64,000 nt of DNA from Narcine bancroftii. Taxonomy: Eukaryota. Positions 9,836 through 63,335 of the stretch are shown one piece after another. Each line of letters starts with the position of its first letter. Positions within the stretch are counted from its first letter, which is position 1. The DNA lies in the NCBI RefSeq assembly GCF_036971445.1, contig NC_091469.1:460598001-460662000 (forward strand). Direction: 5' to 3'. A program made the position numbers and the translations under genes. A model generated the notes under the pieces. The model searched no databases and was not told where the DNA came from. It saw only the letters and a program-made list of their open reading frames with translations.

Positions 9836-10216
9836 TGACAGGTTTTGGCAGCAGACAAAGCAATGTAGAGTTTTGTCTCCTGGTAAAATGATTAATGATT
9901 TTAATAGTTTTCTTCACCATTCAGAAAAAAAAAGTTTAGTTTAGTTTAATTTAGAAATACAGCAAAAATACGGTTTCTTCTGCCCCACAAGCCCATGTCA
10001 CCCACTCATATATCTAAGTAACCAATTCATCCTTTGTGACTTTGGAACATTAAATCAATTAAAATTGAATTAACTATTCAAAGAAAAAAATGTTTTCACA
10101 ATTATAGTTAATTAAAACACACAATACACTTCAAAATAATTAAAAAAAAAAAGAATTAAACTAAAATGTTTGTTTTAAATATCACCTACTCAATATACAG
10201 TCTACAGAAAGAGAGT

Positions 10217-20281: not shown

Positions 20282-23200
20282 TGTGGCGGTACACAACCAG
20301 CCTACTGAAGGGGCAACCTCTGTACCTGCAGGAGTGTAAGGGGACAGGACAACACCTGGCTGGCTGCCAATCAGTCGGCCTGAATATATCCCTCTGGGAT
20401 ATAAGACTGTGCCGGCCTCCCAAAGACTCACACTGAGTTGCTGCAGACACAGCCAGCCTGGCTCTGTGGAGGTTTTTGTGGATTAAAGCCTGTTGTTCAG
20501 ACTTTACCTTGTGTGTGTCTGATTCTGTCTAACAGCGCATCACAATTTAATCCACAAAATTTTACCATGGCTGCCATGGAAAAACTCCTGTGCGCAGGGA
20601 GCCTCGAGGTCAACCCATGCCACCTGGAAGCCCAGACATGCTTCAAGATCTGGCAGCACGTGGTTGAAGCATTCATCGAGGCACATGACGGCAACATCTT
20701 GGACTCTGATCGGAAGAGATTGGTCCTACTCCGGTCAAAGCTGGGTCCCCGAGCCTTCCAGGTAATCAAAGGCTGCACCACGTACAAGAGCACAATGGAA
20801 ACTACTGAGAACTTGTGCAAGCCCCTAATGAATGTGGTCTGTGCAAGGTACCTCCTCAACACCCGAGCCCAGCAACCCGGGGAGATGGCTGAGTCTTACC
20901 TGGGACATTTGCAAGAGTTGGCCCAACCGTGTCTGGCTGAACCCGGGTTAGGTGTAGAGGAGGTCAGGAGGCTGATCCGGGATGCCTTCGTCCGAGGGCT
21001 ATGCTCGAAGGCCATCCAACAGAAGCTGCTGGAAGACAACATCTATGCCCTAACCAGGACTGTGGAAGTATTCCAAACCCTGGAAGCAGCAGCCCTGCAC
21101 GTCAAAGCCTTAAATTCTGGTTTTCCCCAGACTCCCTCATGGCCCTCTCACACTGCAGCTGCAGCCCCAGGCCAAGCTGGGGAGGAGAAGGTTGCTGTGG
21201 CAGGTGCCCGGCACCTCTGTAAGTACTGTTGGTCCCGGTGTGGGTCAGATCGATGATCACCCAAAATTACCCAGCTAGGAACCTGCATTGTTCCCAATGC
21301 AGCAAGAAAGGCCACTTGGCAAAAATGTGCCTCTCTAAAACTGCTGCCACATCAGCAGCCCTATATGACCTCCCTACCTCCCCTGCAGACACCCCCACGT
21401 GCGCATTCTGGATGGCGCCATTGTCCCCGCGACGACTTCTGTCTTCCCCGACTTCGACCGCTCAACATCTGGCCCCACCAGCAACTGTTGCAGCATGTGT
21501 CCTGAGCATCTGCACCAGACCTCTCCGTCCCCGCTTGCTGAGAACTACAGTGACATCACTTCTGGCTCACGGCATGACGTCACTTTCGGCTGACATCACT
21601 TCTCTGGCGCAGCAGACATGGCTGGGGAAGGAGACCAGCTACGCAGCGGCTCCCTACGTGCCACTGCCATCTTGGGCCAGGCAGTGCCTGACACATAGGG
21701 CCTCTGTAGACGTTGAGAATGATGTGGTCAACACAGGCAATGACCAGTCCACCCTACCAATGCTCCCCATGCCTCCAGGTGCCATCAGCTGCCGCACACC
21801 GCACCCAGCAACTGATGGGAATGTGGTCAACACGGGCGATGACCAGGCCACCCTATTGACGGTCCCCTCACCTGCAGAGGCCATCGGCTACCGCATGCTG
21901 TAACTCACGACCGATGTCGACGTGGTCAACACGGGCGATGACCAGGCCACCCTATCAATGCTCCCCATCCCTCTGGATAGCGATGACTCTGACTCCGAGA
22001 TGGTCCTGGCCGCCACCACGCTGACCAGGGACATTCCCCATGACCTCAGATGCTTGATGATGGACGTGCGAGTCAAAGGGCAGGTAACAAAGTGCCTGTT
22101 GGACAGTGGCAGCACCAAGAGCTTCATTCATCCAAGTGTGGCCCACTCCCTAAGGTTAAAGTTCCACCCCACCACCTGCAAGATCACCCTCGACACCAAG
22201 GATAAGACTATTGGTACCCTCAGGTACTGCTCGGTCGATATAACAGTGGGAGGGGAGATTTACACAGGATTCAGGTTCCTGGTCATGCCTAAACTCTACA
22301 CACCACTCCTCCTGGGCCTGGATTTCCAGTGCCACCTACAGAGTGTCACCCTTGCCTTCGGGGACCACAACCTCCACTCACATTGCACAGCACGCCAACC
22401 TACCAGCCCTGGTCAAACTGCGGCCTATCCACACTGCGCATCACCCCAACGGCACTCTTCCCACATCTTGCACTAGGCTGCAAGCCGAACGCCACCAGAA
22501 GTAGGCACTATTGCGCTGCAGACAGGGACTTCATCAAGGCAGAGGTGCGCCAACTCCTGGCGGAAGGCATAATAGAGCCCAGTAACAGCCCAAATAGAGC
22601 CCAAGTCCTGGTGGTCAAAGGGGGAAGTAAGCCAAGGATGGTTGTGGATTACAGCCAGACCATTAATCGGTACATCCAGCTGGATGCCTACACCCTGCCG
22701 AGGATCACCGACAGGGTCAATGAGATGGCCCACTACCGGGTTTTCTCCACGATTGACCTGAAGTCAGTGTATCACCAAATCCATATCCAGCTGAAGAACA
22801 AGCCCTACACTACCTTTGAGGCAGACGGATGCCTGTACCAGTTCCGCCGGGTTCCTTTTGGGGTCTCTGTCTTCCAGCGGGTGATGGATCAGATAGTAGA
22901 CCAGCATAAGCTGAAGCAACATTCCAATATCTGGATAACGTCACTATCTGCAGCCATGACCAGCAGGACATCGATGCTAACCTGGAAAAATTCCTCCAGA
23001 TGGCCGCGGAGCTGAACTTCATTTACAACAAGGAGAAATGTGTGTTCACTCCCACCCGCCTCGCTATCCTGGGGTACATCATGGCCCATGGCGTTGTCGG
23101 CCCAGATCCAAAAAGGATGCACCCATTAATGGAGTTACCTCTCCCCCCCATGCTAAAAGCCCTCTGCAGGTGCTTGGGCCTGTTCTCTTATTACTCGCAG

Positions 23201-23645
23201 TAGGTCCCTCACTTCTCGGACAAGGTCCGCCCACTTGCTCAAGCCACAACTTTTCTCCTCCCACCTGAGGCACAGGCAACCTTCACCCACATCAGGCAGA
23301 CATCGCAGACTCCACTATGCAGGCTGTGGATGAGGACTTCCCCTTTCAGGTGGAGAGCGATGCCTCCGAGGTGGCCCTTGCTGCTATCCTCATCCAAGGT
23401 GGGGGCTCCCTGTCACTTTCATTCCCCAGGAGGTCGACGACTGGAATGTCATTCCCAGCATGGCTCACGTCCCTGGGACCGGTGCTTCTGCATAAGCATG
23501 TACGGACACATAAGGCCGAAGCCCTGGTGGAGCAGGTTTTCCTCCTTCATGCAAACCACAATTATGCCTATGTTAGGTTCGGCAGTGGCAAGGAGGACAC
23601 TGTCTCAACCAGGGACCTGGCAGCAGCAGGAGCACCCAACACTCC
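20282..23645 (+). mobile_element. Gypsy LTR retrotransposon A (5' LTR, gag, PR, RT, partial RNase H, IN C-terminus; no matching 3' LTR)
   Basis: LTR 20282-20544 (TGTGG...TCACA); gag ORF to 21256 and CSQCSKKGHLAKMC knuckle; LLDSGS protease; RMVVDYSQTINR/FSTIDLKS RT; VESDAS RNase H fused to FPRRS...TVSTRDLA. Confidence 0.9.
21712..21975 (+). repeat. Three ~100-bp-period imperfect repeats in the gag-protease spacer
   Basis: GTGGTCAACACRGGCRATGACCAGKCCACCCTA at ~21724, ~21823 and ~21922. Confidence 0.85.
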
Positions 23646-25137
23646 ATGCCAAGTGGGCAAGGGGACTGGTAGTGGCTGGGCAAACACCTAGCCATGCTGC
23701 TGCCATGGTGTGGGATGAAGGCCCCCCCCCCCCAATATCTGCCACTCTCATCAGGAAGTGAGTGCCCTGAGAGGCCTGTCTGAACGACGGATGATTGGCA
23801 ATACCGTAGGCGACACCAGAAGGGGTCAATGGTGGCACCATCCTATGGTAATTGGTAGTGACTGCCATCTAGGTCAGGTTTTCTGCCCTCCCAGAATGGT
23901 ACCTACATGGCTGGCGACAGTGGTACATCTTGGCCTGGGGTCAAGGTTTGTTAGTGAGTGGGCACTAATTGTGGGTATCTGTGGGAGAACCTTCGTGCAC
24001 CACTTTACAGGAAGTGCAATGATGACTGGTGCCTTGGCAGGCTATTTAGTCACCATCGCATGTCTCAACCTTAGAGGGGTGGTCTTGCCCCTCATGGGAC
24101 TGGTGACCAAGAAAACAGTCCAGGAAGACATTACACTCCTGAAGGGATCGAGTGCATGGAGCAGGGAGCACCCGCTCAAGTTTGCAGTGCTGAGGTGAAG
24201 TTCGGCAATGTCACCCTGCTGGTGATCCACAGAGACACAAATGCTCTCTGGAGTGAGCATTGTGGGGGGGGGAAGCTCTGTGGTGGCGAAGCTTCTCGTG
24301 CATCACTTACTCTGACCTGGACCAGCCTCCCCTCTGGTCCTCCCTAACTGGAGGTGGCCCCTAAATAATCTATCTTGTGACCTCTACCAAACACCCCCCA
24401 ACCCCACCCATCCCCCAGGGGAAGACTACCCTTCAGGCTGTTCCTCTTCTTGATATTGCAGATCATCCACTAGCAAGAAATATTGTAAATATTTCATAAG
24501 CGCTCAGTAATGGCAGCATCCCCAGTCTCCCCATTAACAGACATTAATTCTTTATGGGGTGAGTGCTTCAGGAGTTTTACTTAAAAGCTATTAATTTCGC
24601 TTGAATCCTCCTGGCTATTAACCAACACAGGCATATGTGGCCCTCATTTAAAGGGGACCTGAACAGGAATGGCTCCCTCTGTGCTGAGGGGGCGTCTAAA
24701 TGTGAAACCAAAGTGTTGGATGTGTGAGCCAAGAGAAGCCTTTGGCATTTTATGGATGACCTTGCACTGTTGCTCGCAGATGTTGGTGGTAAAGGGTACA
24801 CATATATGCCAGCTAAGCCAGAGAAACTAGGCATTTGAGTCAGTGACAAGACAATTTTCTCTTTCTCCCCTCCCCTCTGACACTGGGGAGCAGCACCCAC
24901 AGCACCCTGCTCCATCGGGAACACAATAAACCTGTTTAGTCGGGAGGGGGGAGCTGGTGAGGCGTTGTCATTGTGTTTGATATTGTGCCTTGTCCAGTGT
25001 ACTTGTGTATATATTGATCCATTTGATATGCATCTTTATCTTTATTTTTATAACTTTTATACTTTTATACTGTCTAGAAACCAGTTATTCATTGTATTTT
25101 TAGTAATTGGGGAGTTATGTGATTTCTGAGGGGGGAA

Positions 25138-25743
25138 TGTTATATGTGGAGGAACACATGGCCTCCCTGTTGGTCTGGAATATTGTGGGTCACGTGACCT
25201 CCATGTTAAACTTATTTGGAAGTCACATCACTTGCCCATCAAGGTTGGACTCTGGCCACCCATTAATGCACACCTTCCTGTTGGCTCATTTAAATTACTT
25301 AGCATCATCCTTGATTAGACGCCCAGCTCAGAATAGTATAAAACATTGATGCATAGCACATTTCTTTCTATCTACCTTGTGGTCCAAGCCCCGGACATCG
25401 CTCCACACCAGGTTGCTATTGTGGACATCGCTGGAAAATTCATGGGTAAGGTGTGCAATACACTGAAGCTGAACTATAGTACTGTGATAGATCAGTACCT
25501 TCAGAGAGCTATACCCCCATTGATACAGGGAAACAGCAGTGTGTTTGAAAGTCCCTTTCTGTAAAGTGTGCACATGTGCGTGAGCGTGTAGGAGATAGGC
25601 AGCCATGGGTATCAAAGTCCAACTTGTGTCCAATGTGTATGTCTATATACTGTAGTTGTTTAGTAGTAGAGTAATTAAGTATCATTTGACGTTCTGCCCT
25701 GTTGTCTCCTGTGCGTTAAATTAAGTTACCTGTAATTATAACA
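25138..25743 (+). mobile_element. 3' LTR (606 bp) of a second LTR element, preceded by a polypurine tract
   Basis: Perfect TGTTATA...TATAACA termini; GAGGGGGGAA immediately upstream; TATAAAA box at ~25337; unrelated to the LTR at 20282. Confidence 0.75.
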
Positions 25744-25869
25744 CGTATTTAGACTAATCTCTCTGTAAACCTTCCTAATTTGATACTCTTTCAAACACAA
25801 CAGAGTCCCAGAACAGATCCCTACTGAATAACTCAAGTTAATAAATTCAAGGCAGAATGCAATCCACCT

Positions 25870-44249: not shown

Positions 44250-47200
44250 TGTGATAGTACAGATTCTATCACTGATGTATATATGTATATATTGTAATAT
44301 AGGATGGCTATGATTGGCTGAGAGTGTAGCCACACCTACTGGCAGGTCTTAAATGATTGCTCCTAGCCAGATCCAGATCATTCTGGACTGGTCGACCTAC
44401 ATGTCATATGCTCCAATATTTTGTTAATAAAAGCCTTGGTTTTGATCAACAAGTCTTTGATTCTTTCGATGTGCACTAAAATAAAATTATTAACAAAAAC
44501 TTTTATTGGGATGGAGCGTATGCTGTGACCGGAACACCTTAACATTGACCCGCAGTCAGCTACTGCCCCAAATGACTTCAAGCACTGGGTGAGGTGGCTC
44601 GAGGCTTAGCTACAGCCCTCTGACTCTGCCGTGGTGGAGGACAGCCATCGACTGCTAGTATTGATGTCTATGGTGTCCCCAAGGGTCTACGAGAACATCC
44701 AGGATGCAGCCACCTACACAGCAGCCATGAAGGTGCTGAAAGGACTCTACGAGCGACCATTAAACAGGGTCTACGACCAGTAAACAGGGTCTACGCCCAG
44801 TACAAGCTAGCGACCAGGAGGCAACTGCCTGGTGAGTCCTGTAGAGCTTACCACCAAGCACTAAGGTTACTGGGCAGAGCCTGTGGCTGCACAGACAGAA
44901 CTGCAGCTGAGATCACCGATGATCTCATTCGGGATGCTTATATGGCTGGGGTCCGATCGAATGAGGTGAGGCAGTGCCTGCTAGATCAAGGGGGAGAAAA
45001 CCTAGAGGAAGCGACCCGGATCGTAGAGACAGTCTTAAGTATGGACACTTACTCTTCATGCCATGAAGTGAGTAGGATGCCTGCTCTTAACCCTACTACA
45101 TTCAAACATCTCTTCATCAGAGCTCTCATTCAATGAAAGTGAGGACTCAATCGCGCAGCAGCGTCTCACATCACTGTGCAGGCGCCGCACACGGAAGGGA
45201 CACTCCACCTTCGCTGCAATGACGTTGGCCCACTTGGACCACCCACTCGAAGCAACGGCCACGCAGGCCCCGGCCCCGACCCCACTAACGGCCGCCCCAC
45301 CTCCGACTCAAGTTCGGCTGCCCCAGCTTCAGCTCCAACCTCAGTGATGGTCATCTCAGCTCTGACTCTGGTGATGACCGCCCCAGCTCTGATCCCGGCC
45401 CTGACTTCAGCAACTGCTGCTGCCAACCAGGAACCTGCTGCCTCCACTACCACCGCCACTGATGCTGCCAACCAGGTACCCACTGCCGCTACTGATGCCA
45501 CTGACCAGGTACCCACTGCCGCTACCGCCGCTGACTGCCCAACCAACTGTCCCACCGCCGGCTGCAAGCAGCAGCCCCAGCCATTCGCCACCAACAGCTC
45601 CAGCCCGACTGCTCCAGTGACGTCATCACGCACACGTAGTGCATTTCAGGCCCAATACTGAGTGATGACATCATGCAAGACTTCACACAGGTCGCTGCAT
45701 CATTGACCCAGGACCAGAACTTCTCCCACCCCCTCACAAAACGATGGAACTGATTAAAGTGCACGGACACTGTACTAATTGCTTATTTGACTCGAGGTCA
45801 ACTGAGAGTTTTATCTGTCTTGACCTGGCCCGCTGTTGCGGACTGGTCATCCTCCCCACTGACCAAAAGATTTCATTGGTGACCAGATCACACTCGACTG
45901 GGATAAAGGGGTATTGTGTGGTGACCCTGAAAGTCCAGGGCATTACATTTACTGATTTTTAACTGTTAGTCCTCCCTCAACTGTGCGCACCAGTATTGCT
46001 GGGACTGGATTTTCAGTGCCAGTTCTGAATCTTTTCCCTGCACTATTGGGGGGCCCCACTCCCCACTCTCTGTCTGTAACCATTCCACCCTGAAGACCTC
46101 CTGCCAGCGACAGCCCACACCACCATCGCCCGTGCCCCACTTGTAGCCTCTCCACCCTCCGGTTGCTCCTCCAGCACTCTTCGCAAACCTCACCCCTGGC
46201 TGGAAACCAGTGGCCACCAAAAGCCGGCAGTATAGTTGCAAAGACAGGAAATTCATCACAAGCGAGGTGCGCAGACTGCTGGACGAGGTTATTATCGAAC
46301 CCAGCTCAAGTCCCTGGAGGGCCCAGGTGGTAGTTGTTAAAAATGGGGAGAAGCTGCGGATGGTGGTTGACTACAGTCAGACAGTCAACTGCCTCACGCT
46401 TCTGGACGCGTAACCCCTTCCATGGATCACAGATGTGATGAATCAGATCACCCAATACCGTGTGTTCTCCACCATTGACCTATCACCAGCTCCCGATCCG
46501 CCAAAAAGACCGACCTTTCGTGGTCTTCGGAGTGAACGGGCAGCTACACCAATTCCTCAGGGTCCTTTTGGGGTCACAAATGGCGTCGCGGTATTCCAGT
46601 GGGAAATGGACCAGATGGTAGACCAGAACGGGCTAACAGCTACTTTCCTGTACCTGAAAAACATCACCATCTGCGGCTATGACATGCAGGATCTTGATGC
46701 CAACCTCGAGAAATTTTTTCAGACAGCGATTTGGCTGAACTTAACCTACAATTTCGACAAGTGTGTCTTCCAGACCACTCAGCTCGCAATTCTAGGTTGC
46801 ATGGTGGAGAACAGGGTGGTAATGCCGGACCCTGACCGCATGCATCCATACTTTCATGGACCTGCCACCACCCCCACACCCAAAGGCACTCATACGCTGC
46901 CTGGACTTCTTTTCGTACTACGCCCAATGGGTTCCACACGATGCCGACACGGCATGCCCACTTATCAAGACCACCTCCTTCCCCCTGTCAACCGAAACCA
47001 GAGTGGCCTTTGACCACATCAAATTGGACATCGCCGCTGCAACACATCACGCCATCGACGAGTCCATTCCGTTCCAAGTAGAGACTGATGCATCCACCTA
47101 GAACCAGGCCGGGCAGCCAGTAGCCTTCTTCTCCAGGACCCTACAGAGTCCAGAGAGCCAACACTCCTCTGTCAAGAAGGAGGCCCAGGCCATAGTCAAA

Positions 47201-48855
47201 GCGGTACGTCATTGGAGGTACTACCTCATTGGGAGGTGCTTTACACTGCTGACCGACCAACGCGCGGTCTCGTTCATGTTTATCAGCACCCACCAAGGTA
47301 AGATTAAGAACGACAAGGTCGCTAGGTGGAGAATCGAACTCTCCACCTTCAATCATGTCATATTGTACCAGCCTGGTAAGCTCAACGACCCGCCAGATGC
47401 GCTCTCCAGGGGGACTTGCGCCAACATACAACTGGACAGGTTGCAGAGTTTCCACGAGCAGCTCTGTCATCCAGGGGTCACTAGGTTTGTGCACTTCATT
47501 AAGGCCCACAACCTGCCCTACATGGTCAAGGAGATTTGTTCCATGACCCAAGCCTGCCCGGTGTGTACTGAGTGCAAGCCCCACTTCTTCCACCCAGAGA
47601 ACACCGACGTCATCAAAGCCACCCGGCCATTTGAACGTCTAAGAGAGGACTTCAAGGGGCACCTACTGTCGACCAACCGTAACACCTACATTCTTTTGGA
47701 GATCGACGAGTACTCTCACTTCCCGTTCACTGTGCCCTGCTCAGACATGACTGCCTCCTCAGTCATAGAGGCCTTGCAGAACATCTTCGGCATCTTCGAG
47801 TATCCCGGTTACATCCATGGTGTCCGGGGGTCCTCGTTTATGAACGCTGAGCTGCGGCAGTACCTCCTGGAGCATGGTATTGCTTCGAGCAGGACCACCA
47901 GCTGTAACCCATGCAGTTATTGGCAGATCGAACAAGAGAATGCCACCATCTGGAAAACGATCACACTTTCCCTCCGGTCCAAAGGCCTCCCCACCGTTCG
48001 CTGGCAGGACGTCCTCACTAGCGCCCTACATTCCATCCACTCCCTCCTATGCACCGCGACGAATGCCACTCCCCATGAAAGGATGTTCTCTTTCCCAAGG
48101 AGATCCAAATCGGGAACAATCACGCCAGCGTGGCTCAAGGTTCCTGGACCTGTCCTCCTGCGGCACCATGTCTGGTACTCAAAAATGACCCTCTGATTGA
48201 CCGGGTGACGCTACTCCATGCGAACCCACATGATGCATACATTGAGTACCTGGATGGGTGGGAGGACATGGTCTCTGTAAGGGACCTAGCCCAAGCCAGA
48301 TTGGACCCGGCATCGCTCCCAACCCAACTTCCTCCAAATCCTTCACCCCTAGGTCACATGCTTGAATAGAGGAATCAGCACCACCCCAACAGCGTTATTA
48401 GCAACAACTCGGGCCAGCCTGTTGACAACACCATTGGGGAATTGAGCGAGGCGGTGTACGCACCCAACAATCCCGCCAGTGACACGACTCCAGTGGCCCC
48501 AATCCCAGCACCACAGTGGTCGTTCCGGACGATCAGGCTGTTACAGACCCTAACCTCCCACCAGTCTTTCTCTCTCCCCCCCCCCTTTTTTTACAGTCCC
48601 TCCATTCAGTTCTCAAAGGTGTGAATGTGATAGTATGGATTCTCTCACTGATGTATATATGTGTATATTGTAGTATAGGATGACTGTGATTGGCTGAGAC
48701 CGTAGTCATGCCTACTGGCAGGTCTTAAAGGGTTGCTCCTAGCCAGATCCAGATCATTCTGGACTGGTCGACCTACATGTGATATGCTCCAGTCTTTTGT
48801 TAATAAAAGCCTTGGTTCGGATCAACAAATCTTTGATTTTTTGACATGCACTACA
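44250..48855 (+). mobile_element. Gypsy LTR retrotransposon B, full-length but decayed
   Basis: LTRs 44250-44480 and 48626-48855 (about 24 substitutions and 1 indel by eye, ~10%); perfect 5-bp TSD TGTGA; gag from ATG 44511; LFDS protease; RMVVDYSQT RT; VETDAS RNase H; H-H-C-C integrase in ORF 47276-48196. Confidence 0.95.
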
Positions 48856-61798: not shown

Positions 61799-62514
61799 AG
61801 ACATTCTTTGGACAATTTGAATGGACATAGTCATCAGGTAAAAAAGGTTTTTCCATCAAAATAGAATAATAGGTCCCACAGTTTGAAGACAAATCTATTT
61901 GGTAATAAGAGGGCGAGAACCCCAAAGACTTTCTCAACCGAGAGGCTGCCCTGATTACAAGTTTCCTTGGCTCCATTTGACCCCACAATAACTTTTTCAG
62001 TTTCACCTTCATCAAGTGGTGTTTGAAACCACCGTGCACCAACCAGGAAACAACAAGGCCTCTAGACCACGTGGTCTCCCTCATGAAGGTAGCGCTTGTC
62101 TGAAAGGAAACTCACATACTTAAATATGCAGTCACTTCTTCCACATGTGGGCAGAGGACGACATGCCAGAGGACTGCAACTCATCTGTGGCCATCACCGG
62201 GAGATGTCACTGTTGTCTGCCACAGTGCTGGGATCCTTCTCAACCACATCTTTCCAGCTGATGAAGAAATTCTCCCAGAATTACATCAAGAGACCTATTG
62301 TACATATTTTATGGATAATTTATTATGATTTTTATGGATTTTGTGTTGCTGTATATGAAAATCACTGCAACATTTTTCTATCACATAACATCTTTTAGAT
62401 ATAACCTATTTCTGTGATTTCCTGTCATATTTTAAGACTTCTAATATATTGCCCACAAAGCAAGCTGTTTTGCTCAGTCCAAGCATGCTCGGGCTTGCAC
62501 TCAGTTCAGGTGTT

Positions 62515-63335
62515 AGTGAGGCCGGAGAAAATAGCATGAATAGCATTTAAAGATGTTATGGAGAATTTTCTTGGCAACGACAGAGCACCAAACTACATCC
62601 AGCTGATTGGCAAAATGCTTCAGGCATTCAAAATCATTGAGCAGCAGTGGTTAGCGCAACACCTTTATAGTGCCAGCAATTGGGACCAGGGTTCGAATCC
62701 TGTGCTGTCTGTAAGGAGTTTTTAACGCTCTCCCCATGTCACCGTTGGTTTTCCCTGGGGGCTCTGGCTTCCTCCCACCCTTCTAAACAAACTGGGGGTG
62801 TAGGTTAATTGGGTGTAAATCGGGCGGCACGGACCCATGGGTCGAAATTGCCTGTTACCATGCGGTATATCCAAATTTAATTTAAAATTTAAGTGCAACT
62901 TGTCATGAAATTTCATGTTCTGCATTTTCACTTGGACTTCTTCCCTGCTGATCTTGGTGCAGTCAGTGACAAACACCGTGAAAAATTCCACCAGGACGTT
63001 GCAACCATGGAAAAGCAGTATCAGGGCAACTGGAATCCATTAATGGTGGCCAATCATTGTTGGATACTGACAAGAGAGGCATCAGATGCTGAGCACAAAG
63101 AAAAATCAGTGTCAAAACACTTTTAGGTCGATTGAACTAACACATTGTGCCAGCATTATTATGCAATTAAACATGCTAAATTCAAGAAATGTTAATTTAA
63201 TGTTTCTCCAGCTTCCAACTTGATACAGAAAATCTGAAATCATTGTTGTGTTCAGCTTGAAGTCGTGCATCATAATTCCTACTTGTTTTTAATAGGGAGC
63301 TTATCTTTTGAAAAAACATTGTGGCCCAGGGTAAT
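62515..63335 (+). mobile_element. DNA transposon transposase C-terminus (probably Chapaev-3), split by a SINE
   Basis: AFKDVMENFLGNDRAPNY...[SINE]...HFHLDFFPADLGAVSDKHREKFHQDVATMEKQYQGNW. Confidence 0.7.
62640..62891 (+). mobile_element. tRNA-derived SINE inserted in the transposase
   Basis: AGTGGTTAGCGC A-box, GGTTCGAATCC B-box, TTTAAATTTA-type tail. Confidence 0.85.

Follow-up and report, generated by a model that had tools for sequence, protein, structure and literature searches.

The family A element and its leader

The window, a stretch of 64,000 nucleotides of the Narcine bancroftii genome, carries on its forward strand two families, A and B, of one Gypsy clade. The 5' LTR of family A spans positions 20282–20544 (263 bp, TG...CA). 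The window copy has no 3' LTR, and the LTR limits are therefore taken from other copies in the genome; they are shared with solo LTRs flanked by 5-bp duplications and with 3' LTRs preceded by a polypurine tract. Of 30 family-A LTR matches, five (the window copy among them) have the same primer-site sequence after them, and three have a polypurine tract before them. The remaining 22 are mostly solo LTRs, flanked by matching 5-bp target duplications. The base equivalent to 20544 is the last one in all 30.

The coding region is a remnant. The likely gag (20576–21256) is followed by a broken protease, a reverse transcriptase (RT) with a YLDN motif and the start of RNase H (21904–23431, from Pfam and the motif), and then by a C-terminal remnant of integrase (23419–23651), which is mapped to longer family copies and has no 3' LTR after it. 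The window copy has an internal deletion that stretches from RNase H to the integrase end. The earlier note placed the gag start 7 nt past the primer-binding site, at 20567. An ATG at this position is the minority state, present in 7 of 30 family-A copies against ACG in 17 (counted from the alignment), whereas the in-frame ATG at 20576 coincides with the start of homologous proteins and agrees with the copy alignment. ATG 20567 is therefore probably not the ancestral start. The gap between gag and protease holds a 99-base repeat in three copies (21722–21976), which is also present in other family-A copies.

When the RT motif is aligned to the YLDD of Ty3 (window 22910–23200; relatives P0001–P0120; L183 and L184), Y[LVI]DN is found in 82 of the 120 relatives and YLDD in 27; 11 are unread. 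Young copies whose LTRs are identical also carry Y[LVI]DN, so the change from Asp to Asn does not seem to rule out activity.

Elsewhere in the window, at 25128–25400, a TG-starting sequence comes after a polypurine tract. By the repeat search it is not similar to the LTR of either A or B, and it is probably a 3' LTR that belongs to an unrelated element. Further inverted repeats, perfect over 12–14 bp and with arms about 170–250 bases apart, lie at 25540–25799, 2786–2985, 9940–10165, and 62384–62560.

The family-A LTR contains an arm, the candidate self-primer, at 20474–20487, with ATTAAA at its end (20482–20487). The putative primer-binding site, 20546–20559, is antisense to the arm and is separated from the LTR end by a single unpaired A. 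In the window copy, the two segments are exact reverse complements over 14 nt, as previously claimed, and no further Watson-Crick pair forms at either end. Across the family, the claim holds for 13 bp only: only 6 of 30 copies have the 14th pair, and it does not covary, as the LTR base changes while the primer site stays the same. Therefore, the family-wide stem is 13 bp, and copying of the primer would not extend fully to the edge, which speaks against the route of self-priming proposed below. A perfect stem of 13–14 bp is scored by script in 16 of 30 copies and at least 11 of 13 pairs in 22 of 30; both counts are lower bounds, as the script anchors failed in three copies and were misplaced in two. 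In the predicted leader fold, the arm pairs with probabilities of 0.72–1.0, and an inner stem (20488–20495 with 20530–20538) stacks on the helix of arm and primer site. As a lineage-wide feature, such an inner-stem "pretzel" is not supported, being present in 14 of 35 loops compared with 28% of shuffles.

A canonical primer-binding site was looked for, and TGG directly follows the LTR in none of the 30 aligned family-A copies. The longest match of the primer site to a host tRNA is 5 nt in a partial set of 28 distinct tRNA genes covering about ten amino-acid types. Both results agree with the statement of the earlier note that the element has no tRNA primer-binding site. In approximate dinucleotide shuffles of the LTR, none of 20,000 gives a stem of at least 12 bp, compared with the observed 14 bp. 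When the same frame is slid along the window, 5 of about 9,000 positions reach at least 12 bp, real elements among them.

The stem in Gypsy B and across the clade

Gypsy B (44250–48855) has two LTRs and a 5-bp duplication. Its arm lies at 44419–44432 and its decayed primer site at 44487–44498, in the same design as family A with a different sequence. With the window copy decayed at the junction, 29 of 30 copies are scored. Perfect stems of at least 12 bp are present in 20 of the 29 and at least 11 of 13 pairs in all 29; none has a primer site that starts with TGG. The arms of its subfamilies differ by a one-base insertion or a substitution, and in most copies the primer site shows the matching change; a few copies are discordant. 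The possibility that the stem is an accident of one copy is rejected, as it is kept in family copies, recurs in Gypsy B, and beats the shuffles.

A young relative of Gypsy B (L176–L195, G000) is present in many copies, with open frames of about 1400–1540 codons and LTR pairs up to 100% identical, which suggests recent activity. Among 20 stretches around young relatives, an LTR pair could be resolved in 17, and each of these has a stem of 14–16 bp. Near-identical young copies differ at the pairing edge, at primer-site positions 15–16 (L177–L195), where three variants give 14, 15, and 16 bp, as if the edge were rewritten during replication. Contigs of four runs, guessed to be RNA, cover the leader of a young family-B copy but reveal neither a start nor an end nor a clear poly(A) junction.

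A pattern search of the genome that fixes only four pairs of the stem returns 2549 sites, compared with 33 in the reversed control. From the first 100 sites listed, 59 chosen by eye as unlike family A were taken, and 46 of them are followed by gag-like sequence; these 46 loci form about 20 rough families. At pairs 7–14, arm and primer site match at a mean of 6.5 of 8 positions within an element, compared with 3.5 of 8 across families. The paired fraction is 0.74 at position 14 and then falls to 0.22 at position 15 and 0.13 at position 16, the last two below the cross-family level. Pairing ends sharply at 13–15 bases across the lineage.

Relatives on public contigs come from few data sets and fall into about 13 families, grouped by eye. 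Sequence upstream of gag is available for 33 of 85, and these were tested. Perfect stems of 12–17 bp are found in 20 of the 33 and shorter stems in register in five; the other eight have no stem in register. The junction ...AAA / (G or A)CC and the start CA-A-TTT are common to nearly all of these outside relatives. The complementarity, far from being absent in most related families, is found in about 20 further families of this genome and about 13 on public contigs, and the proposed covariation of LTR and primer site is borne out by the compensatory changes in the B subfamilies and by the excess of within-element over cross-family pairing. The self-complementary primer site is a lineage trait and not chance.

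The named relatives of the clade come from rays, catsharks, a sea anemone, a whipworm, and a rotifer relative; none was found among viral contigs. Full Gypsy elements of the clade (L171–L175) also occur inside contigs filed as bacterial genomes, probably by host contamination.

Three other Gypsy clades of this genome serve as controls. Their RT/RNase H identity to the clade is 26–33%, compared with 47–76% within it, and a long branch separates them from it in a tree that holds only this clade and these three. The 5' LTR ends are readable in 12 of 20 control loci. In all 12, TGG lies no more than a few bases from the LTR, and a self-stem comparable to that of the clade is absent.

Predicted transcription start, polyadenylation signal, and proposed route of priming

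On the sequence evidence, the position of the site directly after the LTR, the lineage-wide covariation, and the clade-specific controls make it well supported that the stem supplies a self-primer, one of the roles that the earlier note proposed. We consider it very probable that the primer site serves tRNA-independent self-priming in some form. For the exact route, we favor with less assurance a local fold of the arm, an RNase H cut after ...AAA, and extension across the LTR end. In this route, transcription would start near 20430, and the arm would fold onto the primer site. By analogy with Tf1, the RNase H of the element would cut after ...AAA (20487/20488), and RT would extend the cut 3' end past the unpaired A and through the end of the LTR. 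Strand transfer would use the overlap given by the sequence between 20488 and the poly(A) site. When the primer is copied during plus-strand synthesis, the primer site would be rewritten, which would produce the covariation. As a side benefit, the helix would conceal the signal of the 5' LTR in those families whose arm ends in a poly(A) hexamer.

The start site is predicted from sequence motifs. A CCAAT box (20367) and a TATA-like box (20400) form a predicted promoter at 20367–20405; the TATA-like box, noted earlier at about 20400, is confirmed as TATAAG. An initiator-like motif at 20428–20434, 30 nt after this box, places the putative start near 20430. With motif sets picked after inspection of the sequences, 17 of 22 family representatives show a TATA-like motif 55–100 nt upstream of the arm (about one in shuffles), 15 of them with an initiator-like motif 25–40 nt after it; at 22–38 nt before the arm, the motif is found in 0 of 22. 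Because the box and the initiator spacing put the start upstream, the arm probably lies inside R, about 44 nt from the predicted cap and not at the cap.

Since the arm is probably inside R, the earlier claim that the stem can form only at the 5' LTR stands for the local hairpin, but pairing with the 3' copy or with a second RNA would also be possible. The primer may come from the R copy of the arm at the 3' end, or from a second RNA, pairing over long range or between molecules with the primer site. Both ends of the RNA would contain the arm, as it lies downstream of the predicted start and upstream of the poly(A) site; covariation is equally predicted, and solo LTRs are abundant. However, such a primer must outcompete a local hairpin whose pair probabilities are close to 1, and the poly(A) tail must be removed, for which no precedent was found in the literature examined. 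We regard this source of the primer as unlikely.

A start at the arm itself, with the first 13–15 bases of the RNA as the primer in the geometry of Tf1, would fit the sharp pairing edge at the pyrimidine-T boundary and the variable primer-site positions 15–16 of near-identical young copies. The TATA-like motif is, however, missing at the distance that suits such a start and frequent farther upstream, which makes a cap-proximal primer improbable.

The helix may instead serve solely to hide the 5' poly(A) signal, with priming by something else. Repression of the 5' signal of HIV-1 by structure is a general assumption in the available text of PMC5961354. AATAAA or ATTAAA forms the end of the arm in families A and B, in 8 of the 13 outside families, and in 42 of the 46 loci of this genome, a figure biased by the search pattern. 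In the other five outside families, the stem is present and its arm lacks a canonical hexamer; in two of them, a hexamer lies 5 and 26 nt downstream. Moreover, the partner of the arm is always at the priming position, and no alternative primer site is seen. A role in masking alone is therefore quite improbable. Masking of premature polyadenylation, as suggested earlier, is plausible in family A, where the hexamer is paired in the predicted fold. Because the five hexamer-free families keep the stem, masking is not its general cause, and it appears to be secondary at most.

Priming by a tRNA fragment or another small host RNA, with an incidental match to the LTR, is highly improbable: the tRNA screen covers 28 distinct genes only, but the site varies by family and follows the LTR of its own element, which a conserved host RNA cannot explain.

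Returning to the self-primer that folds locally, its length may be tied to the geometry of the polymerase. The two active sites of Ty3 RT are about 13 bp apart (PMC5371799, in the text available), a spacing close to the stem of 13–15 bp, and by this analogy the spacing could set the stem length. A fuller picture, held tentatively and short of an even chance, is that of an animal-wide non-chromovirus clade with independent self-priming, in which an arm internal to R is cut at the end of the hexamer, the helix both blocks polyadenylation and primes, and the stem length is set by the spacing of polymerase and RNase H.

Relation to known self-priming elements

Self-priming is proven in Tf1 of fission yeast, whose primer consists of the first 11 bases and is freed by RNase H (PMC7175516); otherwise, it is inferred mainly for chromovirus relatives and a plant Copia lineage. 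Tf1/sushi chromoviruses are described as self-priming, and the same is predicted of the plant Tcn1 and TAR elements (PMC6317226, PMC4600332, bioRxiv 10.1101/2022.12.06.519325, PMC6934838). Skipper elements have neither a tRNA site nor an LTR match (PMC5006619), and a plant survey reports tRNA primers in its non-chromoviruses (PMC6317226).

The present elements have the features of Ty3/Gypsy: TG...CA LTRs, a target duplication, a polypurine tract, and the order PR-RT-RH-IN. Like Tf1/Tf2 of Schizosaccharomyces pombe, Tj1, and the Tf1/sushi group, they have no tRNA site and an LTR-complementary primer site directly after the 5' LTR, with the same domain order (PMC7175516, PMC4600332, bioRxiv 10.1101/2022.12.06.519325). 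They differ in lacking a chromodomain and in a stem of 13–15 bp compared with 11. Their arm is probably internal to R, whereas the primer of Tf1 is the 5' end of the RNA. In addition, the arm often ends in a poly(A) hexamer, the AAA/GCC junction is conserved, the RT motif is mostly YLDN, and the three-duplex "pretzel" is not general. No chromodomain is found at the integrase C-terminus in the window pieces, in four long relatives, or in the domains precomputed for 120 relatives. A search of the genome for Chromo gives 16 matches. A protein atlas returns only generic RT/RNase H clusters.

From the missing chromodomain, which is the sole basis, we infer that self-priming in this clade would have an origin independent of Tf1/sushi. 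The proposed self-priming works like that of Tf1, but the clade is not filed as a member of Tf1/sushi. Named metazoan Gypsy clades include Mag, CsRn1, Cigr-1, and MolGy (PMC6238403).

The Tcn1 chromoviruses and the plant TAR Copia elements are predicted to be self-priming from LTR complementarity of at least 10 bp located 0–5 bp after the LTR (PMC6317226), which the clade also shows; their lineages and hosts are others. As in the 5' poly(A) hairpin of HIV-1, a hexamer near the 5' end of the RNA is held in a helix; in HIV-1, however, the helix is within the LTR and priming is by tRNA, whereas in this clade the partner strand is the primer site itself (PMC5961354). In the open full text, including PMC3601003, PMC2864245, PMC6238403, PMC12440569, and PMC13524379, no self-priming was found for a non-chromovirus animal Gypsy clade.

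Annotation rules that need a tRNA match miss the elements of this clade. The clade also offers a natural covariation series for testing how RT uses a self-made primer, and its elements may evade the 3' tRNA fragments through which primer sites are targeted. If self-priming is true of this abundant and separate animal clade with young intact copies, independence from tRNA would have arisen again, with a different geometry.
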